40,938 bases of DNA, taken from positions 1 to 40,938 of the IMG/VR virus record IMGVR_UViG_3300032269_000201; one strand, 5' to 3'. The translations under genes were made by a program, and so were the position numbers. This stretch comes from a virus (lineage: Duplodnaviria > Caudoviricetes). Shown here piece by piece: positions 764 to 40,938 of this stretch. Numbering within the stretch: the first letter of the stretch is position 1; each line of letters opens with the position of its first letter. The notes under the pieces were generated by a model. That model did not search any database. It saw only the letters and a program-made list of their open reading frames with translations, and had not been told where the DNA came from.

Positions 764-1096
764 ATGGGTGGAATGTTAATAGATAAACTTGATAGCCCTT
801 GGGAGTTATCAGTTGTAGAAAATGCTGGTGAAGTACCAGCCTCAGAAGTTAAAGATGAATTTGTTATTAAGACAGACAACTTTTTGATTGACATAAAGGC
901 ACAACTCATGTTGATGCCACGCGCACTTACATACACCGCTGGTTGGAGGGCACTTGTTTGGAAGAATAAAGAAACTGGTAGGTTCCAAGACCTCACGGAA
1001 GAAGAATATCAATCTTACATTGACGGAGGAATTGTTACTTACACCAGAGCGAATGGAAGCAGTGCTGAGCAGGTTGAAGGTACCTCAGGAAGTTAA
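764..1096 (+). CDS. Hypothetical protein
   Basis: AGGAG RBS before ATG; directly follows the helicase. Confidence 0.75.
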   Translation: MGGMLIDKLDSPWELSVVENAGEVPASEVKDEFVIKTDNFLIDIKAQLMLMPRALTYTAGWRALVWKNKETGRFQDLTEEEYQSYIDGGIVTYTRANGSSAEQVEGTSGS

Positions 1097-1370: not shown

Positions 1371-2088
1371 AGAAACATTATCAATTGGTTGGTGTGACAA
1401 TGGATTAACTGATGGTAAGTTTACCGAAGGTTTGATGTACACCACCATCACAGCACCAAGTCGTGGCATTGGTATCCACAACGCGGTGCGTGTACAGGGT
1501 AATCAGATTGGTCGCCAACGCCAAGCCTTGTTCGACATGTGGGCAGATAGTATTAAGACAGACTGGTTGCTATGGGTTGACTCAGACATCGTGCTAACCC
1601 TTGACATCCTTGAACTACTGTGGAATACAGCAGACAAGATTGCTCGCCCAGTTGTAAGCGGTGTGTATTTTATCTCTAAGCAGATGGAGTCATCGTTGAT
1701 GCAGCCTATGCCTGCTTTGTTTGATGAAGGTACTAATGAGTTTGAGATTAAGTACAAGCACCCACTACCTAAAGACCAAATCATTAAGGTTGATTGTGCT
1801 GGGCTTGGGCTTACGCTGATGCATAAATCAGTGGTACCTGCATTAAGACAGAAGTTTCCAGACCAGTCTATGTTCGCAGAGATTGAGAATGTAGGCGAGA
1901 AGTTTGTAGGTGAGGACATTGTGTTCTTCCGCAAACTAAAGGCAGCAGGTGTGCCAGTACACGCACACACTGGTGCTATTGCTAAACACATGAAGCGATT
2001 TGCTTATGATGAGAATTACTATGCACTGTACTGGCAAGCAGCACAAGCAGCAGCGAATCAGGAGAACAACAATGGACCACAAGGTTAA
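1354..2088 (+). CDS. GT-A fold (GT2-like) glycosyltransferase
   Basis: WLLWVDSD DxD motif, VVSGVY, AGLGLTL, GEDIVFF. Confidence 0.85.
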   Translation: MAHSSKETLSIGWCDNGLTDGKFTEGLMYTTITAPSRGIGIHNAVRVQGNQIGRQRQALFDMWADSIKTDWLLWVDSDIVLTLDILELLWNTADKIARPVVSGVYFISKQMESSLMQPMPALFDEGTNEFEIKYKHPLPKDQIIKVDCAGLGLTLMHKSVVPALRQKFPDQSMFAEIENVGEKFVGEDIVFFRKLKAAGVPVHAHTGAIAKHMKRFAYDENYYALYWQAAQAAANQENNNGPQG

Positions 2089-2395: not shown

Positions 2396-2760
2396 TGGTA
2401 ACACAACAAGCGAGTAACAAGCGTAGAGGTGCAGCCTTTGAGATTGATTTGGCTGACCACTTAGTAGAAAAAGAATACGATGCTCAACGCTTACCTCGTG
2501 CTGGTCGCAACGACATAGGTGATGTCTTTCTTAAGACAGTAAACGACATCTATGTTATAGAAGCCAAGGCTCCACGCAGGGATGGCAAGATTGATTTGTC
2601 TGGGTGGATTCGTGAGGCTTTAGTTGAGGCTGAGAACTACCGCATTGCTAAGAAATTAAAGGTGGCACCTACGCCATTGGTAATTATCAAGGCATCTAAC
2701 AAGGGCATTGAGGAATCCTATGTAGTCCAAAGGCTTAGTGATGCTCTTGCAAAACTCTAA
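2395..2760 (+). CDS. Holliday junction resolvase (Hjc-like PD-(D/E)XK)
   Basis: NKRRGAAFE...DIGD...VIEAK motifs; TAATG coupling to the upstream gene. Confidence 0.8.
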   Translation: MVTQQASNKRRGAAFEIDLADHLVEKEYDAQRLPRAGRNDIGDVFLKTVNDIYVIEAKAPRRDGKIDLSGWIREALVEAENYRIAKKLKVAPTPLVIIKASNKGIEESYVVQRLSDALAKL

Positions 2761-3599: not shown

Positions 3600-3978
3600 G
3601 AACTCATCGTTCGACCTAGACTTTGGATACGGTAGGAAGGGTGAGTTTTTAGTTGAAGAACTACTCACTGGTGGCAAGACAATTGAAGTTAAGCGGGACA
3701 GAAAGTGGAACAAGACTGACAATCTATACATAGAAGTTGAGTGTTGGTTTCTTAAGACAGAATCTTGGGCACCATCAGGTTTAATGGTAACTGAGGCAGC
3801 GTATTGGGCGTTCGTGTTGGAAAAGGGGGTACTCATGGTACCTACCGACCATGTACACTACGCAATAGAAAACTTTGGCAAAGAGATTACCTGTAACATT
3901 CCCCCGAATAAAAGCAAGGGGTTTCTCATTACAGTTGATAACTTACTAGAGGCAATGAGGCAGTTGAAGAATGAGTGA
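3592..3978 (+). CDS. Putative PD-(D/E)XK nuclease-fold protein
   Basis: FDLD..YG..GE, IEVKRD and NLYIE motifs. Confidence 0.6.
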   Translation: MAKNSSFDLDFGYGRKGEFLVEELLTGGKTIEVKRDRKWNKTDNLYIEVECWFLKTESWAPSGLMVTEAAYWAFVLEKGVLMVPTDHVHYAIENFGKEITCNIPPNKSKGFLITVDNLLEAMRQLKNE

Positions 3979-4746: not shown

Positions 4747-5282
4747 TTATTGGATTGAGTGGGTACGCACAGTCAGGTAAAGATACAGTTGCTGAATTGT
4801 TATGTCTTAATTACAAATACAAACGGCGTTCTTTTGCTGACCCAATACGCCAAGCGTTACTAACTCTTAACCCTAAGTTGGATAGCATCACTCACATATC
4901 TGACTTAATACAAGATTACGGATGGGAAGTTGCTAAAAAGAATCCAGAAGTTCGCCGTCTATTACAGGTAATGGGTACTGAGGTTGGTCGCAAGATGTTT
5001 GGCGATAAGGTGTGGGTCAAGATGTTAATGGATGAATTAAACTATGAAGATAAAGTTGTAATTAGTGATGTTCGTTTTCCTAATGAGGCAGAGGCAATCA
5101 AAAAATTAGGTGGCTTTGTCTGGCGTATCAACCGACACAATCACAGCGCTGCTAATGGACACACAAGCGAGCATGCTATGGATAACTACATGTTTAATCA
5201 TGTTATCTATAACGATGGAACTATTGATGACTTAACTGATGAAGTCTTTATGCTTGCGATGGAACTGGGATTAGAAAAGTAA
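4743..5282 (+). CDS. Deoxynucleoside monophosphate kinase
   Basis: IIGLSGYAQSGKDT, SFADPI, RRLLQVMGTEVGR, ISDVRFPNE, HTSE. Confidence 0.93.
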   Translation: MIIGLSGYAQSGKDTVAELLCLNYKYKRRSFADPIRQALLTLNPKLDSITHISDLIQDYGWEVAKKNPEVRRLLQVMGTEVGRKMFGDKVWVKMLMDELNYEDKVVISDVRFPNEAEAIKKLGGFVWRINRHNHSAANGHTSEHAMDNYMFNHVIYNDGTIDDLTDEVFMLAMELGLEK

Positions 5283-5393: not shown

Positions 5394-5747
5394 CTAAACG
5401 CCATGCTTAGGTTCTGTCAAACCCCAACCAATCTGTCGGCGTATCTTGTGTCGCATGGGTGGTGTTGTCCCGCCCCACACCCCGTATCTTTCATGGGCTA
5501 ATCCCCACTCAAGGCAAGCCATCATAATCGGGCACTCGCTACACATGCGTTCGAACATGCTTTCCTCCTCGCGGGTGAACAACTCCTGCTGAGGGTAAAA
5601 CACCTCGGTATCTATGCCTTGGCAAGCAGCCTGTGACCAGATGCTAGGTCGGTACTTCAACACAAAACTTATTAGCCCCTTGTTGTAGCGGTTCTTACTA
5701 GAGTTTTCACTGACTATCTTATGAAACTCTGGTCTATTATTTTTCAT
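5394..5747 (-). CDS. whiB: WhiB-family transcriptional regulator
   Basis: W..QAAC...C..CP....CL and GVWGG turn; four conserved Cys. Confidence 0.95.
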   Translation of the reverse strand: MKNNRPEFHKIVSENSSKNRYNKGLISFVLKYRPSIWSQAACQGIDTEVFYPQQELFTREEESMFERMCSECPIMMACLEWGLAHERYGVWGGTTPPMRHKIRRQIGWGLTEPKHGV

Positions 5748-5750
5748 GTC

Positions 5751-6194
5751 TTAATACCAATTCTTTGCTAAGTGGTGCGCGTATGCCTTACAGATATTGC
5801 CCTTGCCATAGTGTCTGTCAATGTATTTAAGTCCAGCATCCACCTGCTCATAGCCGTTGATGGTTGGCTTAACTTTAATTAACTTCCATGTACTAGGTAG
5901 TAGTTGTGCTATGCCTAAGGCTTTGCTTGATTTGTTTAATGACTTTGGATTCCAAAGACTTTCTTTAGTCCAGAGTTCATAGAGGCATGGGTATTGTTCA
6001 AGGTTATCCTGCTTGGTTAGTTGGTCAATGGCGTAGCGTTGGTAATCGTTATGATAGTAAGCAATCACTTTTCCCTGTGGTGGTGATACAAACTGTTGCC
6101 CAGTTGGTGTCTTAAGAACTAAGATTAGTCCCAAGATTATTGCTGTAATTATCCATAATCTAGCGTGTGGATGAATGATTCTTAAATTGAGCAT
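5751..6194 (-). CDS. Membrane-anchored lytic transglycosylase (SLT/lysozyme-like, actinobacterial type)
   Basis: N-terminal hydrophobic helix, catalytic ES (KESLW), GIAQ, GLKYI..HYG, terminal NWY. Confidence 0.85.
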   Translation of the reverse strand: MLNLRIIHPHARLWIITAIILGLILVLKTPTGQQFVSPPQGKVIAYYHNDYQRYAIDQLTKQDNLEQYPCLYELWTKESLWNPKSLNKSSKALGIAQLLPSTWKLIKVKPTINGYEQVDAGLKYIDRHYGKGNICKAYAHHLAKNWY

Positions 6195-6357
6195 CTAGTT
6201 TTGCCTCTGCCTTCTCATGTAGGTATGTATCTATGGCTTGGTTGGATAGTTCATTGTGATTTAAGACACAAACATCACACATCTCAAGCATGTAGTTCAT
6301 AACTTTGGGGTTTATTACCATGATGTCGCACTTCAAACAAGGCATTAAGATTGTCAT
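6160..6357 (-). CDS. Hypothetical zinc-ribbon protein
   Basis: CxxC...CxxC; overlaps neighbouring genes. Confidence 0.7.
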   Translation of the reverse strand: MTILMPCLKCDIMVINPKVMNYMLEMCDVCVLNHNELSNQAIDTYLHEKAEAKLDAQFKNHSSTR

Positions 6358-6599
6358 AACAACACCTTGCTGTGTGGCTCAGTGTTATCTAACTTAAGAC
6401 AGAAATCATGTACTTCATCAAGCCAATCGGGTGATGTAATGAATCTGCCTTCTTTGTCCAGCCATGTAAGTTCGTAGCCATCAAGGTCATCCCAATGTAG
6501 GATAACTCGTACCTCTACGCCATCAATGGTGAGGTCAAAGTCCTTGTCATAGGCTGTGACTCCCTTATCCATAGCACCAACCATAATCTTGTGTGTCAT
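6354..6599 (-). CDS. Hypothetical early protein
   Basis: GGAG RBS; translational coupling. Confidence 0.75.
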   Translation of the reverse strand: MTHKIMVGAMDKGVTAYDKDFDLTIDGVEVRVILHWDDLDGYELTWLDKEGRFITSPDWLDEVHDFCLKLDNTEPHSKVLL

Positions 6600-6764
6600 T
6601 TACTGTTCTCCCATCTCATCGTGTAATCGGTCGGGGTCTGGTTCTCCACAATCGCAGTGACCGCAATCGCAATGCGACTCATTATCTTTTGCTTCGCATA
6701 CATCGCATGCTTGGTTGATACCCAGTGCTACATCATCTCCGTCTAGCCACATTGGTTCACTCAT
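6600..6764 (-). CDS. Small Cys-rich acidic protein (54 aa, MSEPMWLDGDD...)
   Basis: Translated by hand; GACAGGAGA RBS. Confidence 0.75.
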   Translation of the reverse strand: MSEPMWLDGDDVALGINQACDVCEAKDNESHCDCGHCDCGEPDPDRLHDEMGEQ

Positions 6765-6923
6765 TTAGTTTTCTCCTGTCTTTGTTAGCCATGCGTTCAT
6801 CGCTGACCATGAGTTGCCATCTTTGTTTGCTTTTGTTTCTGCCTTCTCTTGTGCTTCTGTTTCATCTGCTGCTGTTATGCGTAGCAATCGTTCTGACGAT
6901 AGTGCTACTAGATACTCTGGCAT
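6765..6923 (-). CDS. Small hypothetical protein (52 aa, MPEYLVALSSE...)
   Basis: Translated by hand; GACAGGAGA RBS; TAATG coupling. Confidence 0.75.
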   Translation of the reverse strand: MPEYLVALSSERLLRITAADETEAQEKAETKANKDGNSWSAMNAWLTKTGEN

Positions 6924-7111
6924 TACTTATCTCCTGTCTTAAGTGAGTCCTCTATAGTTCCGCCAATAACTCTGACATCATGGCAGTAACCAAGTTCGTT
7001 GCCACCCACCAATGGGTGTTCGCTGTCCTCTTGTACCAGTTCCATTGCCTCGGCAAGGCTCGATGCCTTAACGATGTAATCCACTTCGATAGTAACCTTG
7101 TAACTTCTCAT
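6923..7111 (-). CDS. Hypothetical protein (MRSYKVTIEV...)
   Basis: GACAGGAGA RBS before ATG 7111. Confidence 0.75.
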   Translation of the reverse strand: MRSYKVTIEVDYIVKASSLAEAMELVQEDSEHPLVGGNELGYCHDVRVIGGTIEDSLKTGDK

Positions 7112-7257
7112 TGCTTTTCTCCTGTCGTTAGTTTTTTTTCGCACTGTTCAAGTATGCCCTGCCAGTAATCAAAGTCCTCGTTATTGGTAGTGGCGTTTCT
7201 TTGTGACCTTGCTCTCTTTATCATGGTTTGGATTTGTTTGCGTTCGGTTGAGTTCAT
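7108..7257 (-). CDS. Small hypothetical protein (49 aa, MNSTERKQIQ...)
   Basis: Translated by hand; ATGA overlap with the next gene. Confidence 0.7.
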   Translation of the reverse strand: MNSTERKQIQTMIKRARSQRNATTNNEDFDYWQGILEQCEKKLTTGEKQ

Positions 7258-7267
7258 GTCTTAATAA

Positions 7268-7705
7268 CTAACCGTAAATCACTTCGCCAAGTACGGCTAC
7301 CTGTAGTACGGCATCACCGCAAATGGCATCGTAATCATCAAAGTCGTACAAGTCCATGTACACCTGTGTGTTGGCTATTGGTAAGGCTTTAAGTAACTCC
7401 TCAATACCGACAATCTTTTCTGTCTTAAGTAAAGTTATCTCGTCAATGGCAACGAGGCGCACCTTGCCTATCTTGTCCCAATCTGTGTCATCAAGGAACT
7501 CAACCTCGTACCAGTGGTTACCAAAAGAATCAAAGGCTGAACCAAAGACGGCATCCCATAATTCTTGTTTGTTAATCTCAACCTGTATGGTGGCTGTTGT
7601 TTCTGTCTTAAGAACTGATGAGATAAGCCGTGTCCCGTTCACATAACTAAAGGTGGCTGGGTCTACCTCGCTGTCAACCTCTGTTACTACTGTCCATGTG
7701 GTCAT
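7268..7705 (-). CDS. Hypothetical acidic early protein (MTTWTVV...)
   Basis: GACAGGAGA RBS before ATG 7705; the longer ORF-track start runs through a promoter. Confidence 0.8.
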   Translation of the reverse strand: MTTWTVVTEVDSEVDPATFSYVNGTRLISSVLKTETTATIQVEINKQELWDAVFGSAFDSFGNHWYEVEFLDDTDWDKIGKVRLVAIDEITLLKTEKIVGIEELLKALPIANTQVYMDLYDFDDYDAICGDAVLQVAVLGEVIYG

Positions 7706-7735
7706 TTGTTTTCTCCTGTCGTAGTTGGTAGTCGT

Positions 7736-7790
7736 AGTTAATCGGTTTGGTTTGTTGGTGTCAAGCATTTGCGATGTGATGTTGGTCACC
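7736..7790 (-). promoter_or_regulatory. Early promoter TTGACA-17-TTAACT with upstream CRP-like box
   Basis: -35 at 7764-7759; TGTGA-tgttgg-TCACC at 7775-7790. Confidence 0.75.
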
Positions 7791-7794
7791 TGTA

Positions 7795-7929
7795 TTAAGA
7801 CACATCATCAACTTGCCAACTCATTTGTAATTCATGGCAGCAATCCTCGCAGTAATCGCAGTCATGTTCGGCTCGGTCAATCTGTTCATCACAAGTTTTA
7901 CACTTGGTTAGTTCTGTCTTAAGACTCAT
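7795..7929 (-). CDS. Small Cys-rich protein (44 aa)
   Basis: AAGGAG RBS; CxxC motifs; stop codon lies inside the TGTCTTAA motif. Confidence 0.7.
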   Translation of the reverse strand: MSLKTELTKCKTCDEQIDRAEHDCDYCEDCCHELQMSWQVDDVS

Positions 7930-8123
7930 CTCTTTATCTCCTTTCCATGGTGGCAGTCGGTCAATGGTCGCAAGCAATCTCCGCACATTGGTTCTGTCTT
8001 AGGACAGTCGGCGTAAGGGAAATACTCCTGCTCCTCGCATGAGCACCAGTTAAAGCGCTCAACCTGTGTGGCGTGGGTAAGTTCGGCTAACTCGCCCCAT
8101 GAAATAGAATCTTGGTCGCTCAT
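7926..8123 (-). CDS. Hypothetical Cys-rich protein
   Basis: ATGA coupling on both sides. Confidence 0.7.
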   Translation of the reverse strand: MSDQDSISWGELAELTHATQVERFNWCSCEEQEYFPYADCPKTEPMCGDCLRPLTDCHHGKEIKR

Positions 8124-8281
8124 GGCAGTGGGTACCCTTCGGGGCAGTTGACTTGCTCAACTAAGCATGACTCTGGCGTATCCCAGATGCCTTGGTCATA
8201 AGAAACCTTGAACAATCCAATAAGTATTAAGACATAAATAACTATGGCTCTGACTTGCTTGCCTTTGCGTGTAAGTTTCAT
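8120..8281 (-). CDS. Small membrane protein (53 aa, MKLTRKGKQVRAIVIYVLILIGLF...)
   Basis: Translated by hand; basic N-terminus plus hydrophobic helix. Confidence 0.75.
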   Translation of the reverse strand: MKLTRKGKQVRAIVIYVLILIGLFKVSYDQGIWDTPESCLVEQVNCPEGYPLP

Positions 8282-8292
8282 GTCTTAAGTCA

Positions 8293-8547
8293 CTACCCTT
8301 CCAGCGTGTAGCATTTAGGGCAGAGGGTGAGTCCGTTATCCTCGCGCTGTTGATAGTTCTCTGTCCATTCTGAGCAACTTTCGCACATCTCGGCATCAAC
8401 TTCCTCGCTGCTTGGAATGATTGAAAGTTGGGCGGTGAACTCTTGAAAGATTTCATCTGCTGACATCTCATCGGCAGAATAAAACTCGTAGTTGATACTC
8501 TCGAAACTTGGTTCGTGTAGTATCTCTATGCTGTACTTGTGTGCCAT
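8293..8547 (-). CDS. Acidic protein with C-terminal zinc ribbon
   Basis: GACAGGAGA RBS; CESC...CPKC. Confidence 0.75.
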   Translation of the reverse strand: MAHKYSIEILHEPSFESINYEFYSADEMSADEIFQEFTAQLSIIPSSEEVDAEMCESCSEWTENYQQREDNGLTLCPKCYTLEG

Positions 8548-8596
8548 GTTCTGTTCTCCTGTCTAAGGTGGGCGGTGTGCCTTACCTTGTGCCTCA

Positions 8597-8651
8597 ATGG
8601 TGCCATGAACACCGCGCCTTCTCAAGGATTGAGGCTGTGAGTTTGCTCACA
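8597..8651 (-). promoter_or_regulatory. Early promoter TTGAGA-17-CACCAT with perfect CRP-like box
   Basis: -35 at 8625-8620; TGTGA-gtttgc-TCACA at 8636-8651. Confidence 0.65.
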
Positions 8652-8657
8652 TCTGTA

Positions 8658-8792
8658 TTAAGACACACTCACAATTCTTACCGATTGCTTAAGGCTCTCG
8701 GCTATCTTGCGAAACTCTGCGAACTTTTCTGCGCTGAGTGTGTTCTTAGATTCCAGACCGCTTGCGCTGTATAGGTTGAAAGTAATTTTCAT
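8658..8792 (-). CDS. Small hypothetical protein (44 aa, MKITFNLYSA...)
   Basis: Translated by hand; GAAAGG RBS; stop codon inside the motif. Confidence 0.7.
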   Translation of the reverse strand: MKITFNLYSASGLESKNTLSAEKFAEFRKIAESLKQSVRIVSVS

Positions 8793-8923
8793 TTGTTATT
8801 TACCTTTCTTAATACATAATGAGGATTAACTTCTTTTTTTGTCCAGCCTTTTTCTTTTGTCCAGTAGTATTCGAACTCGGTTTCATGCGCTTCTATCCAC
8901 TCTACCCATGTGAAAGTTGTCAT
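8789..8923 (-). CDS. Small hypothetical protein (44 aa, MTTFTWVEW...)
   Basis: Translated by hand; ATGA overlap. Confidence 0.65.
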   Translation of the reverse strand: MTTFTWVEWIEAHETEFEYYWTKEKGWTKKEVNPHYVLRKVNNK

Positions 8924-8926
8924 GTC

Positions 8927-9301
8927 TTAAGCCACATCTTTCTCGCGCTTTAGCGTAATTGGTAGGTGTTCGTCAAAGTCTGCGAAATAAACCCAGCCCT
9001 TGCCCTCCTCGTAAAGGTAGGCATACTCCTCGCCTGCGTTGAAATTGTCCAGCCAATCTTGAACGCCATTAAAGGTGCGTGCCTTGTCGCTGTCATTGTT
9101 ATAGGCTCCAGCCTTTGTCTCCTCTAGTGTCTCCATGAGTGAGGAGAAACCGCCTAGCGCGATGAGTTCCTCTGCCTGTGCCTTGCTGTTGTAGTTGTCA
9201 ATCAAGCCCAGTCCGACACCGCTTGGGTATCCGTCCCAATGGCAGTAAATTGCGCGAACTGTGTCGCCTTCTTTGATTCCAATTGTGCTTCGTGTTGCCA
9301 T
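8927..9301 (-). CDS. Conserved phage protein of unknown function (MATRSTIG...YCHWDGYP type)
   Basis: GACAGGGGA RBS before ATG 9301; YCHWDGYP and EEYAYLY motifs. Confidence 0.8.
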   Translation of the reverse strand: MATRSTIGIKEGDTVRAIYCHWDGYPSGVGLGLIDNYNSKAQAEELIALGGFSSLMETLEETKAGAYNNDSDKARTFNGVQDWLDNFNAGEEYAYLYEEGKGWVYFADFDEHLPITLKREKDVA

Positions 9302-9364
9302 TCTTTTTTCCCCTGTCTTAATACCTAACGGGATACTTTCCCGCTTGGTTTCTTGCTTGGTGTA

Positions 9365-9420
9365 AGTCAATCGCCTCGCGCCATGCGTGTCAAGCATTTA
9401 GCGGTGTGATTCTGCTCACA
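9365..9420 (-). promoter_or_regulatory. Early promoter TTGACA-17-TTGACT with perfect CRP-like box
   Basis: -35 at 9393-9388; TGTGA-ttctgc-TCACA at 9405-9420; flanks resemble the 7736-7790 promoter. Confidence 0.75.
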
Positions 9421-9481
9421 TCGTGCCCCCGTGAGTCGTGAACTCGCGCCGACTTATCGGGCGGGGGCGTTCTGTCTTAAG

Positions 9482-10123
9482 TCATGCCTCCTTGAAGATT
9501 TCCTCGCATTGGTTACATGTCACGCCAGATTCAAGGACACCGCGAGAAAGTCGGATTACATTCTCACATTCGCACATTGCCTTGATTAGGTTGGTGTTTC
9601 TGCCTTTCTTCTTAGCCTGCTCGCCACCAAGGGCGGTGATGTCAAAAGCATTTGAAAGGATAGTAAGGGCTTTCTTCCAACGCTTAGCACCAAAATCGGT
9701 GAGAGTTGTTGAGGCGTGTCCCTTGCCCTTAATCTCGTGAGTTTCTAGCCCTAACGCCTCCGCTTGAGCCTTGAATTTAGCGTTGTGATATTGATTCGAA
9801 GAACAATCCTCGATTCCATTCATGTGATTGATTGAGTGAGCCACCTCATGGAGCAGGGTTGAAAGTAGTTCTTCTGGTGTTGTGAAATGTTCAAGGTTGA
9901 AAGCAATCTCGTTGAAAGATTCCTCGCCTGCTTGCCAAGGGGTGTAAGGGGTGAAATGTCCCTTTGCGCCCTTGAGGTTGCGGGTCACTAGCAAAGTTGC
10001 GCGGGGTGCGCCTGTTTCTGTCTTAATAACCTCGTGAGCCTGCTCAAGCGCCTTGGTAAGCGTTGAGAGTGCCTCCGCCTTGCTTGCCTTGCCTGTTGCC
10101 TTGGTTGCTGTTGTTGCGGTCAT
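9482..10123 (-). CDS. SprT-like zinc metalloprotease with C-terminal zinc ribbon
   Basis: TLLHEVAH (HExxH), YHN..F, CxC...CxxC. Confidence 0.85.
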   Translation of the reverse strand: MTATTATKATGKASKAEALSTLTKALEQAHEVIKTETGAPRATLLVTRNLKGAKGHFTPYTPWQAGEESFNEIAFNLEHFTTPEELLSTLLHEVAHSINHMNGIEDCSSNQYHNAKFKAQAEALGLETHEIKGKGHASTTLTDFGAKRWKKALTILSNAFDITALGGEQAKKKGRNTNLIKAMCECENVIRLSRGVLESGVTCNQCEEIFKEA

Positions 10124-10170
10124 GGTCTTATCTCCTGTCGTGTCTTAAGCCCTTGTGACTTAATACCCTC

Positions 10171-10242
10171 AAGGTACAAGCGGGGCGGGCAGGCTGTCAA
10201 TAGGATAATGCGGGCAATTCGGACATTGTGAGGAACATCACA
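10171..10242 (-). promoter_or_regulatory. First early promoter TTGACA-18-TACCTT with perfect CRP-like box
   Basis: -35 at 10200-10195; TGTGA-ggaaca-TCACA at 10227-10242. Confidence 0.78.
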
Positions 10243-12904: not shown

Positions 12905-14722
12905 ATGGCGCTATCTATTGACGAAATCAAAGATACTTACGACCGTTACCGCCGTATGTATGATGACCGTGACCAGAGAATGAATCAAGTACTTCTGGTT
13001 CGTCAAGGAAAAATGCGTGATGTTTACCCAGATTTATTCCCCGATGGTCCTTTTGAAAATCCTATCGTTGCGAATATGGTGGATATTGCTGCCCGTGATT
13101 TATCAGAAACTATTGCGCCTTTGCCTGCGTTTAACTGTAACTCTACCTCTATGGTATCTGAGGCAGTACGCAGAAAGGCTGACAAGCGTGAAGAAATTGT
13201 TAACGGCATAGTTGACTTCTCTGATTTGCAATCACAGATGTTTGTGGCTGCAGACCGTTATGTTACCTACGGTTTCGTACCTGCTCAGGTTGAGATTGAT
13301 TACGATGCCCAGATGCCACGCATCCGTTTCTTTGATTCACTAGGTTCATACCCAGTAATTGACCGTTTTGGTCGCTGCACAATGTTTTTCCAGCGCATTA
13401 ACAAACCAACTCAGGAACTGATGGCTCAGTATCCAGAGATTGCTCATTTGATTTATGACAAGAATACTCAATCAACTATGTCTGAAATCGTACGCTTTCA
13501 CGATAAAGACCAGGATGTTTTATTCTTACCTCAACGCAGCAATCTAGTTCTTGACCGTGCTACTAACCCAATGGGTGAGTGCATGGTTCGTATTGTACGC
13601 CGACCATCTATTGATGATATGGCGCGAGGACAGTTTGATGATGTATTAGCAATTCAAGTTGCTAAGGCTCGTTACGCACTGCTTTCTTTGGAAGCAGCAA
13701 CCAAATCAGTACAGGCACCGATTGCGATGCCTCAGGATGTACAGGAGTTAGCCCTTGGACCAGATGCAATTATGCGTTCCAGCAAGCCTAACGAAATTCG
13801 CAGAGTCCCGCTTGAACTACCTGCTAACACTTTCCAACAGCAGCATGTTCTTGAAAGCGAATTACGCCTAGGTTCACGCTATCCAGAATCTCGTACTGGT
13901 AATTCAGATGCTTCAATCATTACAGGTCGTGGTGTTCAGGCACTTATGGGTGGTTTTGATACACAAATCAAGACAGCGCACTCAATGTTTGCTCGCACAT
14001 TTACAGAGTTAATGGCTTTAGCACTTAAGACAGATGAAAAAATCTTTGGTAGCAAAGAAAAGACATTAGAAGGTATCTTTAACGGTACCCCGTACAACAT
14101 TAAGTACAAGCCAAGTCGTGATATTGCTGGCGACTACACCGTAGATGTGCAATACGGACTCATGGCAGGGCTAGACCCAAACCGCGCACTGGTATTTGGA
14201 CTGCAGGCTCGTGGAGATAAGTTAATCTCACGCGATTTCCTACGCCGTCAGATGCCTTTTAACTTCAACGCAACTCAAGAAGAAGAAAAAGTTGAAACAG
14301 AAGAACTACGCGATGCCATGAAACAGGCTATTGCCTCTTATGCACAAGCAATTCCAGCACTTGCCTCACAAGGACAAGACCCATCAGACATTTTGATGAA
14401 ACTTTCTACAGTAATCAGCGAACGCCAAAAGGGAACAGCAATTGAAGATGCTATCCAAAAGGCATGGGCACCTAAGAATCCCCCACCCGCTGCTACCCCT
14501 GCAGAAGTAAGTCCTCAAATGGGGCAACCAGGTGCGGTTCCAGCGGGTGCGGGGCAAGAGTCACTACCTCCAGGCTTAACGCCTACGGGTCGTACGCAGG
14601 GAGTCGCTGCAGGGCAGATTGCGCCAGGCGGTAGACCAGATATTCAATCACTATTGGCATCTCTTGGTGCTCGTGGTGAACCTAACCTACAAGCAACTGT
14701 CGCACGGCGACTACCTATTTAA
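12905..14722 (+). CDS. Portal protein (head-tail connector)
   Basis: Position after terminase, about 600 aa, Pro/Gln/Gly-rich C-tail; AGGAGGT RBS. Confidence 0.85.
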   Translation: MALSIDEIKDTYDRYRRMYDDRDQRMNQVLLVRQGKMRDVYPDLFPDGPFENPIVANMVDIAARDLSETIAPLPAFNCNSTSMVSEAVRRKADKREEIVNGIVDFSDLQSQMFVAADRYVTYGFVPAQVEIDYDAQMPRIRFFDSLGSYPVIDRFGRCTMFFQRINKPTQELMAQYPEIAHLIYDKNTQSTMSEIVRFHDKDQDVLFLPQRSNLVLDRATNPMGECMVRIVRRPSIDDMARGQFDDVLAIQVAKARYALLSLEAATKSVQAPIAMPQDVQELALGPDAIMRSSKPNEIRRVPLELPANTFQQQHVLESELRLGSRYPESRTGNSDASIITGRGVQALMGGFDTQIKTAHSMFARTFTELMALALKTDEKIFGSKEKTLEGIFNGTPYNIKYKPSRDIAGDYTVDVQYGLMAGLDPNRALVFGLQARGDKLISRDFLRRQMPFNFNATQEEEKVETEELRDAMKQAIASYAQAIPALASQGQDPSDILMKLSTVISERQKGTAIEDAIQKAWAPKNPPPAATPAEVSPQMGQPGAVPAGAGQESLPPGLTPTGRTQGVAAGQIAPGGRPDIQSLLASLGARGEPNLQATVARRLPI

Positions 14723-15445: not shown

Positions 15446-18400
15446 TGAGTTGGTTTGACACTCTTGGCAAGATGGCTAAAGGCGTTGCAGACTTTACTGG
15501 AGTTGCAGGGCTTTACCATGACTTGTCTACTGCAATGTCCAATGATGACCCTTGGTATGTTGACAGTTTAAATATAGCCAAAGATATTGGCAAGATTGGT
15601 ACTACACCAGTTCGTGCTGCTGTTAAAGGTGTGCTTGCTGTAGGCGAAAAGTCTTATGAATTAGGTGGCGTTGCACGCCAGGCTCTTGAAAAGGGAATCC
15701 TTGATACTCCCTTTATGTATAACAAGTTTAAAAATGCTGACGAAACTTATGATGCATACAAGATGCGTGTTGAAGCAAACAAAGACAAAATTTCTTTAGG
15801 TCAAGCAACACTTTCATTGCTATCACCTGGCAAAAATAGTGCAGACCGTAGTGGTTTCTTCCAAGACTGGACAGATAATAACTTGCGTTTTATGTCTGCA
15901 GGCTTTGATATTTTTAATGCCGAGGACCGCAAGACTGCTTTCCAAGACCAATACACAGGTAAATTTATATCTGGTATGGATGACTTAGTTGCATCTACAG
16001 TTATTGACCCACTTACATTTACTGGATTTCTTGGTAAAGGTGCGGTAATTGTTGCAAAGGGAACAATGCTTGACCAAGTTAGCGGTCGCATGGCTCGTGC
16101 TGTATTTGGTAAAGTAGCAATGACTGCCGAAAAGGTAGATGAACTTGTTGCTCAAGGTGTTAAAGGTGAAGGCAAGGCTGCTAAAGATTTAGAATTTTTA
16201 GCAAATAGCGATGCTGCTGAACAGGCTGGTTACTGGGCAAAGAAGAAAGTTACCAACCCTGATGCCATGGCATTTCTCTTTGGTCGTGCTAAGACTGTTG
16301 AAGAAGTTGGCGAAGTATTTAGTGCTATCACTGGCAAGAATACAAAGGCTATGGCTGCACTCGCTGAGCGTGACCCAGAAACTGGTTTAGTTCTTGAGAA
16401 ATTTCTTAATGGTCCTTCACACGCAGAACGCCAGTTACTTGATGGAAAATTAGAAGGCGATATTCTTGTATCTGCAGAACATAACAATGCTATTTCTAGT
16501 TATGTATTAGATTTAATTAAAACAGATACTCGTTATGCAATGGCAATGGACAAAGTTGCTACTGGTGGTACTCAACTTAAGTATGGATTTGAGTCTGGGC
16601 TTTCTAAAGGTAAGTCAATTAAGGCTTCACAAAAGCAAGCAGCCCGTACATTTGGTGAGCCAGGAATTGAAACTTTCCAAAAAACTAGCCTTCACCCAAT
16701 TATTAAAGTTGTTAATTACTTCCGCGAAGATTTACCAAGTGGTGTATTTAATGTTAACGATGGTAACTCATTTCAAGAGTTCAACACATTCTTGCGCGAA
16801 GTCAATGACCTATCAGGTAGAACCTTTGGTTCAAAAGGTCGTAAATTAGCAGACAATTATTTAACTGCTGCAAGTGAAGCAGAGCGCATGGATGTTATTA
16901 AAATTGCTGAGCAAACAGCGCTTGGACATTTGTTCCCACAGTATTCAAAAGATGAGATTGATAAACTATATGCATTGTTTGACTCTCGCCGCGCTACTGC
17001 AATTGCAAAGCACAAAGACCAAGGATTTATTTCTTACTTTGTAGGCGATACTATTCAGCACGCTGTTGCTCCAATTCTTAATCGTGAAGCAGCCAACACA
17101 GTTATTATTGCTGACATGCGTAAACTCAAGTACGCAATTGATGCACATGAAGGTTCTCTTAAGACATTACTTTCAGGGATTGACACACAAGATTTAGCGT
17201 TGCGTGGACAAAAGGGACTTGCTGCCCTTGACACAGTTAACGACATCTTTAAGACATCTGTATTGATGCGCCTTGGCTACACAGTTCGTAACTTAACTGA
17301 GGCTCAACTATCTATGGCTGCTAAGGGATTTGCCCTACCAGGTATGTTCCTAGCCAACGGTAAAGAAGGAGCAGTACGCTTCTTTAATAACCGTAAGACA
17401 GGTTTCTCACGCTTAGGTGACCACATCAATGTGTTGCTTGGTCGTGCCGATGATTCAAATGTTTTGAAAGATGAAGTTGGTCGTTATGTAGATGCACTTC
17501 GTAACGATGACATGACATCTCAGCAGATGGTCAAGCACATTAACCAACGCCTCGGTGAGTTGCTTGATAACCGTAAAGGTTTCATTGACCGTCAAGGTCC
17601 AATGCCTGAAAAGGGTGGACAACCACTTCGCGTTGAAAATGAAGTCAGACTTCTTATGGGTGCGTTAGCAGATTTAGAATCAAAAGTTACCTACCATGGT
17701 TCTCCAACTAGATTCCAAATTGATGAGTCACGCCCAATTTCAACCTCTGGCGTTAAGTCAGTTGCTGACCGCTACTCTCAGGGTGGTATGATTGCCTCAA
17801 TAGAGCAATACATCCCAACTAAGACTGGTAAGCCTGGTCGTTTAGGCGCAAAGCCAACTCCAGAAGGGGAAACGCTACCTACTGAAAAGCGTGCTGATGT
17901 TCTTAACGAAGCCATGCTTAAACTCCAGTCAGATATGATTGATGCTGTTAACGCTGGCAAGAAAGTTGAAATTAAAAAGGGTGCCACATGGCAGCGTGTC
18001 AAGGCTATTGATTACGAAACACTTGTACTTGCCCTTGAAAATGATGAGTTTGAAACAGTGCTGTTTAAAGACTGGACATATCGCCCAGTATTCCGCGTTG
18101 GTTACAACGAAGGTAAAACAGCACAGATTCGTTCTTACGGTAAAACATTAACTCTTACCAAGAAAGCAGAAAAAGAATTTGCGCCAACTACAAAACCTGG
18201 TGAAGATTTAACTCCAGGAGAAATTGTTGGTTCATGGCGTAACCTGCCAGAAGAACTTAAGACAGAAGTATTTGCTGGCAAGGTATCTAATTTTAATACA
18301 TGGCTTAAGACAAAAGGCTGGCAAAATAAGGAAGATGCTGTTACCCGTTGGGCTACAGACAATGGTTATGGCAGCCTACTTGTTTCAGATGACAAGCGTG

Positions 18401-21604: not shown

Positions 21605-23061
21605 TGGTTACCCAATATAACTACACCCCGCCTCAGAGCAATGCTGATAAGTTAAAGCAAGCCTACATTGCTCAAGCACAATGGAAAAAGATGCTTGACA
21701 GTGCCAAGGTTGGCTCAGCAGACTACAACAAGGCTCTTAAGCAATACAAAGCCTTAAGCGCATCAATTAAGACTTTACAAGAAGCAATTAATGCTGAAAT
21801 TGGTAAGACCAAAGCAACTGCAGATAAGTCTGCTCGTCAAAAGTTAGTTGATAAATTAACTCGTGCTACAGACTCAGGAACCGCTGCTGAAATTAAAGCA
21901 GCCAAAGATGCTCTTAATAAATTTGATGGTAAAACAACAACAACTACCACAACAGCAACTACAACTAGTGCAACTACCTCAACAGTTGTAGATAAAAACA
22001 AAAATGGTATCCCAGATAATGTTGAATCAGCAGATGCTAAAGCCAAAGCAGATGCTAAAGTTAAAGCAGATGCTGCAAAAGCAGCAGCAGACAAAGCAGC
22101 AGCAGACAAAGCAGCAGCAGAAAAGTTAATTGCTGACAAGGCAGTTGCTGATAAAGAACTTGCTCTTAAGACAATGTATGTAGATTACCTGCGTACAACA
22201 TTTGCTGGACTTGAAGATAAAACCCAGAAGGCTCAGATTGATGGTTTGTTTGACAAAGCATCTAAAGAAGGTTGGACTGCAGAACAATTCCAGATGCAAC
22301 TTGAAGGCACTGATTGGTGGCAACAAACGCTACCTAGCCTACGCTCATGGTATTTAGATACACATGACCCACGCAAGCGGTCAACAACTGTTGAGTTAAT
22401 CCGTAACAAGGTTGCCTCCGTGTCTAGTTACCTAGAACAATTGGGTATCACACCACAAGGCATTGACCCTATTACTGGCAAGGCTTTTGATAAGACTGGC
22501 TATGTCAGCGGTATTGCACAAGAAGCCGTTAAGAATGGTTGGAACGATAACCAACTTAGAGATTACCTTGCTACTCAAGCAGCCATTGTGTTTACTGGCG
22601 GCGGTGAGATTGGTAGTTCACTATCTAAGATTCGTGACACTGCCTACGCATACGGTGTAAACCTTGACCCTACTTATGAAAAAATGATTAACAACTCTTT
22701 GCTTGACTCCAGCGATGGTCGTGATGCACAGTATTACATTGCTGAAATGCGCCGTCAGGCTATTGAAAATCCTAATAACAAAGCATTTTCTGAGGCACTT
22801 AACTCTGGTCGTACGCTGTATGAGGCTACTCGTTCATACCGTGGGCAGATGGCTGGTCTACTTGAGGTAGATGAAAGCAATATTTCTTGGAATGATTTAA
22901 TGAAAAAAGCAATTGATAGCACTACAGGTGCTGCTCGTACATTTGCTGACTTCACTAAAGAAGTTAAGGGCGACCCACTATGGCAGCAGACTCGCAACGC
23001 AAAAGAAACATACAGTTCTAAAGCGCTTGACTTGGCTAAGATGTTTGGATTGGTGGGATAG
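21604..23061 (+). CDS. Putative internal virion protein with poly-Thr and AADKA repeats
   Basis: Coupled ORF with a low-complexity linker at about 21934-22155. Confidence 0.7.
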   Translation: MVTQYNYTPPQSNADKLKQAYIAQAQWKKMLDSAKVGSADYNKALKQYKALSASIKTLQEAINAEIGKTKATADKSARQKLVDKLTRATDSGTAAEIKAAKDALNKFDGKTTTTTTTATTTSATTSTVVDKNKNGIPDNVESADAKAKADAKVKADAAKAAADKAAADKAAAEKLIADKAVADKELALKTMYVDYLRTTFAGLEDKTQKAQIDGLFDKASKEGWTAEQFQMQLEGTDWWQQTLPSLRSWYLDTHDPRKRSTTVELIRNKVASVSSYLEQLGITPQGIDPITGKAFDKTGYVSGIAQEAVKNGWNDNQLRDYLATQAAIVFTGGGEIGSSLSKIRDTAYAYGVNLDPTYEKMINNSLLDSSDGRDAQYYIAEMRRQAIENPNNKAFSEALNSGRTLYEATRSYRGQMAGLLEVDESNISWNDLMKKAIDSTTGAARTFADFTKEVKGDPLWQQTRNAKETYSSKALDLAKMFGLVG

Positions 23062-27018: not shown

Positions 27019-27291
27019 ATGGCAGAGTACAAGTTCGTACCACCCACAGTATTTGAAACCCCGATTGCGTGGGACAGACTGTTTATTCGTTACGGTATCC
27101 ACCGTGGAGTTTCTGTCTTAATGATTGATGGACAGTACTCAAGTTATCGTTTCCCCGCTCAAACAGATATTGCAGCATCTAGCGAACATTACCTAGGTGG
27201 ACATGAATACATTATCAATGAAGCAACTAAGAATCGCTTAACCGATGCTTCTATCGGTGGCGTATATGGGGAGAACATAACACCACTATGA
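27019..27291 (+). CDS. Hypothetical virion-associated protein
   Basis: AAGGAG RBS; YLGGH.Y motif. Confidence 0.75.
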   Translation: MAEYKFVPPTVFETPIAWDRLFIRYGIHRGVSVLMIDGQYSSYRFPAQTDIAASSEHYLGGHEYIINEATKNRLTDASIGGVYGENITPL

Positions 27292-27560: not shown

Positions 27561-28120
27561 CTGCAATCGTAGGTATTCAGGGAAAAGATTGGGCAATGCT
27601 TGCCTCAGATTCCATGACTTCCTATGACGACAGACCTTTCTATGCCAAGGGTATGAACAAAGTTACCGAGCGTGGCGAATATCTATTTGCCGTAGCAGGG
27701 GATGCTTTAGCGGGTGACATAGCAAATTCACTATGGATGCCACCACGAGTATCTAAGACCATGAGCACTAATGATTTTGTAATGACAAAGGTATTGCCAT
27801 CGTTTAAGGCAGCCTGCGTTGCTTACAACTATAACCCCAATAACAAAGAAGATAAAGATGCTGGCTTTGATATGTTGCTTTGTATCAACGCAACCATCTA
27901 TCAAATAGATTCTGGCTTTGGCTGGATGCGAGATGACCGTGGCTTATATGCCATTGGCTCAGGCGGAGAACTTGCCTTGGGAGCCTTGGCTGCACTAGCA
28001 GCAAATGAACAAAGCATAACAAATGCTCAGTCTATAGCCGAGCGTGCTATCCAAATTTCTGCCGAGTACAACATCTATGTCGGTGGAGAATTACAACTTA
28101 AGACACAAAAGGGGAAATAA
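27557..28120 (+). CDS. Ntn-hydrolase, HslV/proteasome-beta-like peptidase
   Basis: N-terminal Thr (MTAIVG...ASDS), K at the nucleophile-activating position, AIGSGG..ALGAL. Confidence 0.85.
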   Translation: MTAIVGIQGKDWAMLASDSMTSYDDRPFYAKGMNKVTERGEYLFAVAGDALAGDIANSLWMPPRVSKTMSTNDFVMTKVLPSFKAACVAYNYNPNNKEDKDAGFDMLLCINATIYQIDSGFGWMRDDRGLYAIGSGGELALGALAALAANEQSITNAQSIAERAIQISAEYNIYVGGELQLKTQKGK

Positions 28121-33892: not shown

Positions 33893-34237
33893 ATGGAATA
33901 CGCAATCATTAATTCAAACAACATTGTTGAAAACATTATTTATTTTGACGATGAACCAACAGACATAACACCGTTTTTAGATGCACAAAAAACTGCATTT
34001 AATAATCAAGATTTAACTGCTATAAAAATTACACCAGAATATACTGTATATGGAATTGGTAATGTATTTAATGGTGAAAGATTTATGCCAGCACAACCAT
34101 ATCCTTCATGGATTTGGGATGAAACAAAATACTTTTGGGTTGCACCTAAAATACACCCAGAACTTTTGTATGGCAACAATGGCGCAGTTTGGGTATGGGA
34201 TGAGGAGAACTTGGAGTGGATAGCAACAAGACGGTAA
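33893..34237 (+). CDS. Tail-fibre-associated (chaperone-like) protein
   Basis: YA.I..N.V.N...F.P.QPYPSW.WDE...W.AP; follows the Gly-rich fibre. Confidence 0.65.
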   Translation: MEYAIINSNNIVENIIYFDDEPTDITPFLDAQKTAFNNQDLTAIKITPEYTVYGIGNVFNGERFMPAQPYPSWIWDETKYFWVAPKIHPELLYGNNGAVWVWDEENLEWIATRR

Positions 34238-35666: not shown

Positions 35667-35866
35667 AAGTAACCAAGGCTCGTTCATTTACTAAATCATT
35701 AAGTTATAGAATCTTTGGAACACTAAGTTCCTTTGCTGTTGCCTATGCTATTACTGGTAAGGGAAGCCTGTCTGCATTTATTGCTATGTGGGAAACAGTA
35801 GTCAAGGTTGGTATCTACTACTGGCATGAAAGAATCTGGAACAAAGTTAAATGGGGCAGAAAATAA
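35663..35866 (+). CDS. DUF2061-like small membrane protein
   Basis: RS..K..SYR..GT...YY.HERIW..V.WG. Confidence 0.8.
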   Translation: MKVTKARSFTKSLSYRIFGTLSSFAVAYAITGKGSLSAFIAMWETVVKVGIYYWHERIWNKVKWGRK

Positions 35867-39064: not shown

Positions 39065-39197
39065 TTAATAACTTCTTTAATGTATTAAGTCTGCGTAGGC
39101 GAGCACGCTGTTCTGTCTTAATACCATAAGTAAAACCAATTTTAAACATAGTGATGTTGCTCACAATTAAAGCCACAAAAAAAATAATTACTTTCAT
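39051..39197 (-). CDS. Small membrane protein (48 aa, MKVIIFFVALIVS...)
   Basis: Translated by hand; ATGA overlap with the upstream gene. Confidence 0.65.
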   Translation of the reverse strand: MKVIIFFVALIVSNITMFKIGFTYGIKTEQRARLRRLNTLKKLLNGKV

Positions 39198-39537: not shown

Positions 39538-40374
39538 ATGACACTTGAACAAGTTACGGGAAAGAACTACATCTCCCACTCCGCCATGTCAACATGGCTT
39601 GGGTGCGGATGGCAGTACTACCTCACCCGTGTACAAAATGTAGCAGAGTCACCTTCCTACTGGCTTGCTGGTGGTAAGGCTGTACATGAGTGCACAGAAA
39701 TCTATGACATCAAGCCTGAGGGTTTCGACCCAACTGCTATGTTCATAGAACGATGGGAACATAACTACAAGATGGTGGACAACGGTATGCCTTGGCGTGC
39801 TGGTGGTCGTGCTACCAAGGCTTTTCCTAATAAGGAAGATGCTGAATGGTGGTTGGCTGCAGGTCCACGCATGGTGGAATCATGGATGCAGTTCCGTGAA
39901 GATAGTGGATGGCACATTTGGGAAACCCCCGCTGGCATACCCGCTATTGAAACTGAAATGAATCAACAAATCAACGGCGTAAACATTAAAGCGTTCCTTG
40001 ACCGCATAATGGTTGCGCCTACTGGCGAGTTGGTAATTGTAGATATTAAGACAGGGGCTGAACCTAAGTCCCAGACACAACTTGGTATCTATGCAGTCCT
40101 TGTGGAGAAAACCTTTGGTATTCGCCCACAACTTGGCAGTTATTTCATGGCACGCACAGGAGAATTAACTGCTCCTGTTAGTCTTGAGCGCTTTACTGAG
40201 GCACGCCTCGGCTCATGGGCTAAGGGTTTTGAGATAGCAGTAAGTAACAAAATCTTTATTCCATCAACTGGGTTTATGTGTGGCACATGCTCCGTAAACT
40301 CATCATGTTATGCAGTGGGTGGCAAAGACTCACACCTTTATCCAGAGATACCTATAGGAGAACCAAATGACTGA
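39538..40374 (+). CDS. RecB-like / Cas4-like PD-(D/E)XK exonuclease
   Basis: IS.S....W..C, G.AVH, LDRI, IVDIKTG, QLG.YA, C..C.....C; AAGGAG RBS. Confidence 0.9.
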   Translation: MTLEQVTGKNYISHSAMSTWLGCGWQYYLTRVQNVAESPSYWLAGGKAVHECTEIYDIKPEGFDPTAMFIERWEHNYKMVDNGMPWRAGGRATKAFPNKEDAEWWLAAGPRMVESWMQFREDSGWHIWETPAGIPAIETEMNQQINGVNIKAFLDRIMVAPTGELVIVDIKTGAEPKSQTQLGIYAVLVEKTFGIRPQLGSYFMARTGELTAPVSLERFTEARLGSWAKGFEIAVSNKIFIPSTGFMCGTCSVNSSCYAVGGKDSHLYPEIPIGEPND

Positions 40375-40789: not shown

Positions 40790-40938
40790 ATGCGCCTACT
40801 CAGCCGTGCTATTAAGACAGCATCACAAGGGGGTGCAACACTTCCTGTTGTGTGGCACTCGCTCGCTGCTCAACAAATAGCAATCCGTTACGGCGAGGTA
40901 AGCATGATTGCTGGACCGCCAGGGGCAGGCAAGTCAAC
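40790..40938 (+). CDS. Helicase, 5' part (continues at the window start)
   Basis: ATG 40790 is in frame with 2-754. Confidence 0.88.
   Translation, partial: MRLLSRAIKTASQGGATLPVVWHSLAAQQIAIRYGEVSMIAGPPGAGKS
40816..40938 (+). repeat. Terminal direct repeat, right copy
   Basis: Identical to 1-123. Confidence 0.97.

Follow-up and report, generated by a model that had tools for sequence, protein, structure and literature searches.

The 40,938-nucleotide window analysed here is the whole of IMG/VR virus record IMGVR_UViG_3300032269_000201 (Duplodnaviria; Caudoviricetes) and carries 35 exact copies of one 8-nucleotide word, 16 written as TGTCTTAA and 19 in the other orientation as TTAAGACA. The array is real and selected, and a SprT-like protein encoded by the first early gene is a strong candidate for its reader, from an unexpected protein family. 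In the best explanation overall, to which we give an even chance, a dimer of this protein is a repressor with an operator- and stoperator-like array that silences its own promoter and the early genes.

The word array and its two classes among relatives

A sequence-only reading of this DNA had reported at least 35 exact copies, 18 of them within 5747-10148, against a chance expectation of about 2 per genome. A recount gave 35 and 18 at the same coordinates, and the chance count was 1.91 ± 1.67 (maximum 9) in 100 dinucleotide shuffles and 2.4 under an order-2 Markov model. The word is the top 8-mer of the genome under both order-2 and order-3 Markov models. Synonymous-codon shuffles that kept all proteins gave 4.1 ± 1.9 copies (maximum 12; n = 1000), as compared with 26 in the coding sequence; these shuffles, which the earlier reading had itself proposed as a check, uphold its claim that selection acts on the DNA and not on the protein. 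The LKT and IKT peptides that it held to be forced by the word were likewise found, 18 of the 28 [LIVF]KT tripeptides being encoded by TTAAGACA. The word array is selected at the DNA level.

The density of the word is 3.67 copies per kb in a block of small leftward genes (10123 to 5394), named the early block by analogy with the gene layout of relatives, 1.24 in the replication block and 0.29 in the late block; replication genes occupy 39538-5282 and structural genes start at 10781. Copies wholly within genes number 24 and those at gene edges six. Six copies form stop or start junctions, and the sites said to supply stop codons (7795 and 8658) or to adjoin or join start codons (5747, 7257, 8281 and 8923) are so placed. 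The word does occur in both orientations, as had been stated, but unevenly: TTAAGACA lies on the coding strand in 28 copies and antisense in seven. In nine genomes that share the word (class A, see below), the coding-strand bias is about 204 to 57 by a rough region split, and codon constraints may contribute to it. The pooled profile is a TTAA-centred pseudo-palindrome, ttc-TGTC-TTAA-K-w-m-m, and G or T follows 33 of the 35 copies. The 12-bp palindrome had been called imperfect; its perfect form never occurs in the window and occurs four times over the nine class A records. Among the variant sites listed earlier, the one given at 4881 was misplaced and lies at 4901, and two further TGACTTAA copies are present at 35951 and 36968.

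The coding-strand bias and the six copies at stop or start junctions would suit a word with a function in RNA, or one that serves recombination or marks boundaries in the shuffling of small early genes. Most sites, however, lie inside genes, conserved replication and structural genes included, seven of the 35 copies are antisense, and the corresponding word of the sister class described below is perfectly palindromic, so that such an action is highly improbable.

Relatives were taken as the 80 best terminase matches, and the word class was read where enough early DNA was present. They carry either TGTCTTAA (class A, the A word) or GTTTAAAC (class B, the B word), and the two classes are interleaved on a quick terminase tree. 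The 18 near-whole genomes split 9/9: class A genomes contain 29-45 copies of TGTCTTAA and 0-10 of GTTTAAAC each, and class B genomes 27-58 copies of GTTTAAAC and 0-6 of TGTCTTAA. Codon usage follows the same division. Per genome, the A word encodes 9-23 of 19-32 [LIVF]KT tripeptides in class A and 0-4 of 10-18 in class B; the B word encodes 12-23 of 18-31 [RCGS]LN tripeptides in class B and 0-6 of 6-14 in class A. In the Streptomyces relatives WRightOn and Immanuel3, nothing comparable to the word array is present.

Conservation in relatives, another check named by the earlier reading, was found among class A kin, which share the array. Class A kin retained window sites outside the early block in 61 of 114 aligned cases, where the rate for neighbouring 8-mers would give 31.6; class B kin did so in 4 of 95, where it would give 12.7. 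Retention in A kin but not in B kin indicates that selection on a site depends on the early module of the genome, and in the 18 near-whole genomes the word class follows the early module completely. Most structural proteins of the class B genome G004 share 83-97% identity with those of the window, and this genome has six A words, none of them inside the early block; class A genomes G006, G009 and G010 retain 5-10 B words outside theirs. These hybrids suggest that early modules were swapped in both directions. The class B early module includes amidoligase and class II glutamine amidotransferase genes in 9/9 genomes (L103 13457-15448), which are absent from class A.

Two distant relatives have repeated words of other kinds. 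In one with a WhiB-like gene and 44% terminase identity (L123 3939-9367), an early palindrome of its own, GTATGATWATCATAC, occurs about nine times, several times at gene starts; the locus gave no SprT match. In the other (L124 628-1640), TCCGTTTAAACGGA occurs three times, with no SprT match in the 14-kb locus. It was rejected as a SprT-linked word because the SprT match in that genome lies on another stretch.

A SprT-like protein as candidate reader

The candidate reader matches the Pfam SprT-like family PF10263 (E 3.8e-7; 30.4 bits against a cut-off of 25.6). Its monomer model (predicted local distance difference test, pLDDT, 80) has an N-terminal domain, a loose linker and a tail. Residues 11-151 match Wss1 (Z 9.0, root-mean-square deviation 3.5, 104 aligned residues) and SPRTN (Z 8.9, root-mean-square deviation 3.1, 99 aligned; PDB 6mdx and 5xbn), and the match to the PprI structure has Z 4.8; Foldseek found nothing for the model at E ≤ 0.001. 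The N-terminal domain contains HEVAH, an HExxH motif, of which H92, E93 and H96 are invariant, together with a third histidine, H113, in 25 class A sequences. The tail is a four-cysteine zinc ribbon after a basic segment, and in a search for solved DNA-reading folds the tail alone resembled only generic zinc ribbons, and weakly (best Z 3.2; best E 0.075). Its RNTNLIK segment would be the specificity element: all 25 class A proteins aligned, the most divergent at 57% identity, have RNTNL, and B-type proteins have Q[STG]TR in its place.

The earlier reading had taken the word for a site, present in many copies, at which a dimeric protein binds the DNA; this is now the best reading, and modelling supports a homodimer of the SprT protein. 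The homodimer prediction scored 0.67 and the best of three controls 0.01, and runs agreed in at least 72% of contacts with pLDDT of at least 81. In the calibration of this score, 20 of 30 solved pairs came up to the mark, and so did 1 of 23 single chains. The predicted interface is formed by residues 15-70 and 161-166, and the tails take no part in it; an interface in the N-terminal domain with two free tails suits a palindromic site.

The type of SprT gene divides with the word. The type present in the window was found in 9/9 class A and 0/9 class B genomes, and class B has another SprT type. In four distant A-word loci of two lineages, searched by single-protein scans, SprT is the sole class A-specific early gene present in all. 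The loci fetched by the window SprT protein alone contain at least five A words in 59 of 62 cases. In the scan for the B word, 80 of 130 loci had flanks, and the word was present at 6-35 copies in 36 loci. Of 23 B-word records taken from outside the family, 17 have a SprT-type gene, the most widely shared family among them, and one has WhiB; the six without a SprT match are five fragments, 17-22% complete, and one complete record of 29% GC with a weak word excess.

Other early genes were considered as readers and rejected. Both classes have WhiB, a sigma-K-like protein and terminase, whose class-diagnostic columns number 3, 1 and 0, respectively; a winged-helix-like open reading frame (ORF) at 2075-2395 is present in 1/17 relatives; and none of the other class A early genes occurs in all four distant A-word loci.

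The tail and the word change together. In a table of 123 distinct proteins clustered at 90% identity, from which clusters with less than 3 kb of DNA were dropped, all 30 clusters with RN[TSK]NL tails have the A word and none has the B word; of the 32 with Q[STGN][TS]R tails, 29 have the B word and none the A word; and 7/8 clusters with other tails have neither word. At 70% identity, A tails have their own word in 4/4 clusters and B tails in 21/24; the lineages are not independent, class A forming only these four clusters, and the B count is partly circular, the word itself having served to retrieve part of the B loci. The A loci were almost all retrieved with protein queries.

A further comparison, free of this circularity, used 21 deposited records of cultured phages, hand-picked from 172 protein matches by protein match only and representing fewer lineages than records. 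All 12 phages with a QxTR tail contain the sister word GTKTAAAC, at 2-41 copies: Intolerant and LazerLemon 41 each, Tweety19 27, Zeta1847 22, R26L 21, Maureen and Emotion 17 each, Pan1 16, Mica 7, HeidiAbel 6, Persinger 4 and one 29-kb contig 2. For two phages, the counts of 22 and 27 compare with an expectation of 0.1. Among the nine records with other tails, eight have no GTKTAAAC and FP1 has one. The recorded hosts of these phages span several phyla and include E. coli, Arthrobacter, Streptomyces and Dinoroseobacter.

The protein of phiAsp2 (L464), 30% identical to that of the window, has a third tail, KSGNL, and its genome contains 17 copies of a 16-bp palindrome, TGACWSTGAAGTGTCA, one of them just upstream of the SprT gene, pas43. 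One relative that shares this tail has five copies of TGACWSTGAAGTGTCA in 15.5 kb, and two more distant relatives have one and none. No replacement word tied to the SprT gene was found in Dismas, FP1 or Epa5.

A word that changes in step with the zinc-ribbon tail suggests that its copies are docking sites for the SprT protein. It is probable that the SprT protein is the reader of the word, which it would bind directly.

The evidence points to a phage-encoded rather than a host-encoded protein as the reader. If the word were the site of a host protein, the SprT gene would merely travel with host-specific early modules, and it is true that the word changes over together with the entire early module and that CRP-like host boxes differ by class (4-5 vs 0-1 in most genomes). 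The sister word, however, occurs in phages of several host phyla and only with the QxTR tail, and phages of the same host genus, Microbacterium, differ according to the tail, Zeta1847 having 22 copies and Dismas, Armstrong, Gack and Celaena none. Further, no other A-specific gene is present in all distant A-word phages. On this indirect evidence, a host reader is very unlikely. The one scan of prokaryote genomes for the host returned five distant phage-like contigs in non-actinobacterial bins, and the WhiB homologs found were all close kin of the phage protein, with no named host protein among them.

Proposed repression and competing roles

Two sites lie directly behind the predicted promoter of the SprT gene, the first where transcription is predicted to start, the second ahead of the ribosome-binding site. 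TTGACA or TTGACT occurs at a similar place in many class A loci; a consensus promoter scan of the window gave no excess and did not pick up the SprT promoter. A site is present within 120 nt upstream of the SprT gene in 26/31 A clusters and 27/38 B clusters, and close upstream of it in 11/12 cultured QxTR phages.

In the proposed mechanism, the SprT protein would be made first and pair through its SprT-fold domain, and the dimer would read the word with its two zinc-ribbon tails. Binding at the 10141-10167 sites would block initiation at the protein's own promoter. Binding along the early and replication genes would turn early transcription down, the in-gene sites acting as a road-block that is densest where early transcription runs. 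The role would be shut-off of early genes, or else an integrase-free genome would be kept quiet and immune to like phages, and the two words might act as two immunity types. If the SprT protein is indeed the reader, repression is rather probably its job. Of the putative functions that the sequence-only reading had offered, the first, a shut-off like that by stoperators, is preferred to a mark for protection or a decoy.

The nearest known arrays are the stoperators of cluster A phages (L5 gp71, TipsytheTRex repressor), which the available part of the source describes as more than 20 asymmetric 13-mers at promoters and in short intergenic gaps, read by a helix-turn-helix (HTH) monomer (PMC9283540). 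As far as that description goes, the window shares with them more than 20 copies of one word genome-wide, enrichment in the early arm (3.67/kb vs 0.29/kb late), an orientation biased with transcription (28/35), sites at promoters and elsewhere, and a word that varies between relatives with its reader. It differs in that the site is a TTAA-centred pseudo-palindrome, with a perfectly palindromic sister word, and in that its reader is a predicted SprT-fold dimer with a zinc-ribbon tail. Its sites lie mostly inside genes, and no integrase was matched, whereas the cluster A phages described are temperate. By reader, symmetry and placement, the window array falls outside the cluster A type.

The second point of comparison is cluster AZ, whose SprT-like protein, Lizalica gp46 in the available text, belongs to the same two-domain family as the window protein (bioRxiv 10.1101/2025.05.26.655371). 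The window protein, whose tail is of the RNTNL kind, is about 22% identical to the Lizalica gp46 type, and its word is a different and longer one; the AZ phages Tweety19, Maureen and Emotion have 27, 17 and 17 copies of the sister word. In the text examined, a protease function is predicted for the AZ protein and no binding site is named (bioRxiv 10.1101/2025.05.26.655371). According to the same source, AZ phages form lysogens with no known repressor, the SprT-like homolog is one of four named repressor candidates, and Liebe, with a truncated SprT copy, makes clear plaques, its near-twin Maureen turbid ones (bioRxiv 2025.05.26.655371). Homoimmunity of AZ lysogens without a known repressor is also described in the part available of PMC8758107. 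Our literature searches on the words or on the pairing of a word with SprT returned no relevant paper.

Several points weigh against the SprT protein as a repressor that reads the word. Liebe and Maureen differ in three other bases as well. HeidiAbel has the SprT gene and six sites, together with a separate cI-like repressor gene, clear plaques and high restriction-modification sensitivity in the portion available of its description (PMC11990801); its own cI-like gene and clear plaques imply that the SprT protein is not the immunity repressor everywhere, and its restriction sensitivity speaks against a general protection role. In the window, no integrase was found among the scanned ORFs and there is no sign of quiescence; the 24 sites inside genes are unlike intergenic stoperators. 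In Pan1 and R26L, sites occur every 3-5 kb, more like coating than promoter control. Co-variation of tail and word does not prove contact, and the tail counts carry the dependence between lineages and the partial circularity given above. Dismas-type proteins keep the zinc tail but showed no word of their own. Two unrelated phages have TGTCTTAA(T) repeated in tandem between early genes, in intergenic clusters of seven copies (L342 2765-3029) and six (L368 4827-5071), and no SprT match was found in these records, which are 10% and 42% complete. Lastly, HExxH is kept in 120/120 class A proteins and in 150/150 top profile matches, and a pure repressor needs none.

Because HExxH is kept throughout class A, a protease role is the main rival. 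The same reader would then use its sites to park an active Wss1/SPRTN-like protease that cuts host proteins, such as silencers or defence proteins, on the incoming DNA, and the upstream site would serve autoregulation. In addition to the invariant HExxH and third histidine, the likeness of the fold to DNA-dependent proteases, the sites inside genes, densest in an early block at a likely genome end, and the even spread of sites in Pan1, R26L and Bas97 are consistent with this role. However, HExxH is missing in 9/9 class B kin, which keep the zinc tail and have the densest arrays, so that proteolysis is not needed for upkeep of the array there, and HeidiAbel has the system and is nevertheless very sensitive to restriction-modification. 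The protease role is thus considered unlikely.

SPRTN and Wss1 share with the window protein the fold of residues 11-151 and the HExxH motif. They are not known to be readers of DNA sequence; the window type departs from them in a tail that changes together with a word and in one branch that has lost the catalytic motif. Zinc metalloprotease domains are tied to repeated palindromic operator control in IrrE/PprI-DdrO and CapP-CapH, where protease and HTH repressor are separate proteins; here, in contrast, the protease fold and the candidate DNA reader would be in one chain.

In a third role for the same reader, dimers would coat or bridge the genome for compaction, cell entry or segregation, with little effect on transcription. 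About one site per gene in the early block with regular spacing elsewhere, a predicted dimer with tails on a flexible linker and a catalytic motif that is dispensable in class B kin are all compatible with such a structural function. The conserved placement of a site at the predicted transcription start of the SprT gene and the coding-strand bias fit control of transcription better, and the scanned ORFs gave no match to a partition ATPase. Thus, a purely structural job appears improbable.

Feature catalogue, genome context and significance

Coordinates of the sites and of the candidate reader are given in Table 1.

Table 1. Candidate reader, its predicted promoter and copies of the word in the window.
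Feature	Position	Strand	Basis
Predicted sigma-A promoter of SprT gene, TTGACA-18 nt-TACCTT	10171..10200	-	read from sequence
Variant site TGACTTAATACC, putative operator 1, at predicted transcription start	10156..10167	+	
Exact site, putative operator 2, between predicted start and ribosome-binding site	10141..10148	+	
First early gene, SprT-like protein, 213 amino acids (aa), candidate reader	9482..10123	-	Pfam SprT-like, fold, homodimer score, co-variation
C-terminal C4 zinc-ribbon tail, residues 165-213, with RNTNLIK	9485..9631	-	alignment, model, tail-word table
Exact site within SprT gene (IKT)	10019..10026	+	
Exact site directly after SprT stop codon (TGTCTTAAGTCA)	9473..9480	+	
Exact site adjoining ribosome-binding site of next gene	9314..9321	+	
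Exact site, stop-start junction	8923..8930	+	
Exact site giving stop codon, adjoins CRP-like box	8658..8665	-	
Exact site directly at start codon	8281..8288	+	
Exact site within gene, antisense (YVL)	8227..8234	-	
Exact site close to gene start (LKT)	7915..7922	+	
Exact site giving stop codon, adjoins CRP-like box	7795..7802	-	
Exact site within gene (LKT)	7604..7611	+	
Exact site within gene (LKT)	7421..7428	+	
Exact site directly at start codon	7257..7264	+	
Exact site, gene end, adjoins following ribosome-binding site	6935..6942	+	
Exact site within gene, antisense	6394..6401	-	
Exact site within gene, antisense	6261..6268	-	
Exact site within transglycosylase gene (LKT)	6108..6115	+	
Exact site, stop-start junction ahead of whiB	5747..5754	+	
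Variant site TGACTTAATACA	4901..4912	+	
Further variant sites	5228, 5285, 12631, 17753, 18409, 35951, 36968		
Exact site within deoxynucleoside monophosphate (dNMP) kinase gene, antisense	4803..4810	+	
Exact site within replication-block gene (LKT)	3752..3759	-	
Exact site within resolvase gene (LKT)	2531..2538	-	
Exact site within glycosyltransferase gene (LRQ)	1843..1850	-	
Exact site within glycosyltransferase gene (IKT)	1553..1560	-	
Exact site within replication-block gene (IKT)	867..874	-	
Exact site, circular junction, inside helicase start (IKT)	40812..40819	-	by eye
Exact site within exonuclease gene (IKT)	40046..40053	-	
Exact site upstream of small zinc-ribbon gene, near CRP-like box	39114..39121	+	
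Exact site within portal gene (LKT)	14025..14032	-	
Exact sites (four) within 1938-aa late gene	17159..17166, 17249..17256, 18257..18264, 18305..18312	-	
Exact site within late gene (LKT)	22166..22173	-	
Exact site within late gene, antisense	27114..27121	+	
Exact site, end of HslV-like gene	28098..28105	-	

The virus record is complete, with a 123-base terminal repeat in the window, and a whiB gene is present. The window terminase is 44-50% identical to 31 full-length matches in cultured and deposited phages, mostly Streptomyces Beephvirinae. Since the genome carries whiB and the terminase kin are mostly of this group, the window is likely a complete WhiB-bearing actinophage with an actinobacterial host. 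Of the 63 ORFs scanned, 45 were compared with PHROGs and Pfam and 18 more with Pfam; among them no integrase, as the earlier reading had also stated, no partition cassette and no L5 gp71-type HTH or other classical repressor was matched. A tRNA search of the window found none.

A start-associated ribosome-binding motif, GACAGGAG, precedes early genes at 6773, 6931, 7119, 7713, 8556 and 10132 and is enriched in relatives too. Palindromes of the form NGTGA-N6-TCACN, which we take to be CRP/GlxR-like, occur five times (7775, 8636, 9405, 10227 and 39150), and three of them sit 10-11 nt upstream of TTGACA or TTGAGA in the early block. By a stricter CRP-like pattern, class A genomes have 4-5 each (one has two) and class B genomes 0-1; the Streptomyces relatives have one such palindrome about 300 nt from the left end. 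Among the tail genes, 34216-35866 encodes a host-like sulfotransferase-family protein, an adenosine 5'-phosphosulfate (APS)-kinase/cytidylyltransferase fusion and DUF2061.

A wider generalisation is speculative, and we hold it to be unlikely as a whole. It would make dimeric repressors of SprT metalloprotease fold a widespread and undescribed class with a swappable zinc-ribbon reader, in which RNTNL corresponds to TGTCTTAAK, QxTR to GTKTAAAC and KSGNL to the phiAsp2 word. Such proteins would silence phage genes through arrays across the genome, define immunity types, supply the missing AZ/EH repressor and be turned off by DNA-triggered self-cleavage and not by RecA.

The SprT protein of the window is likely a phage repressor of a kind not described before, this being its candidate function. 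A binding word is thereby proposed for a family annotated only as 'SprT-like protease' in 167 cultured phage records and in about 5,000 clusters at 50% identity, and the question of which protein keeps cluster AZ lysogens immune becomes testable in laboratory strains. The three tails with their three words provide a natural specificity series for a small zinc-ribbon DNA reader. The relatives of the window, in turn, show a phage family that rewrites its sites genome-wide after a single module swap.

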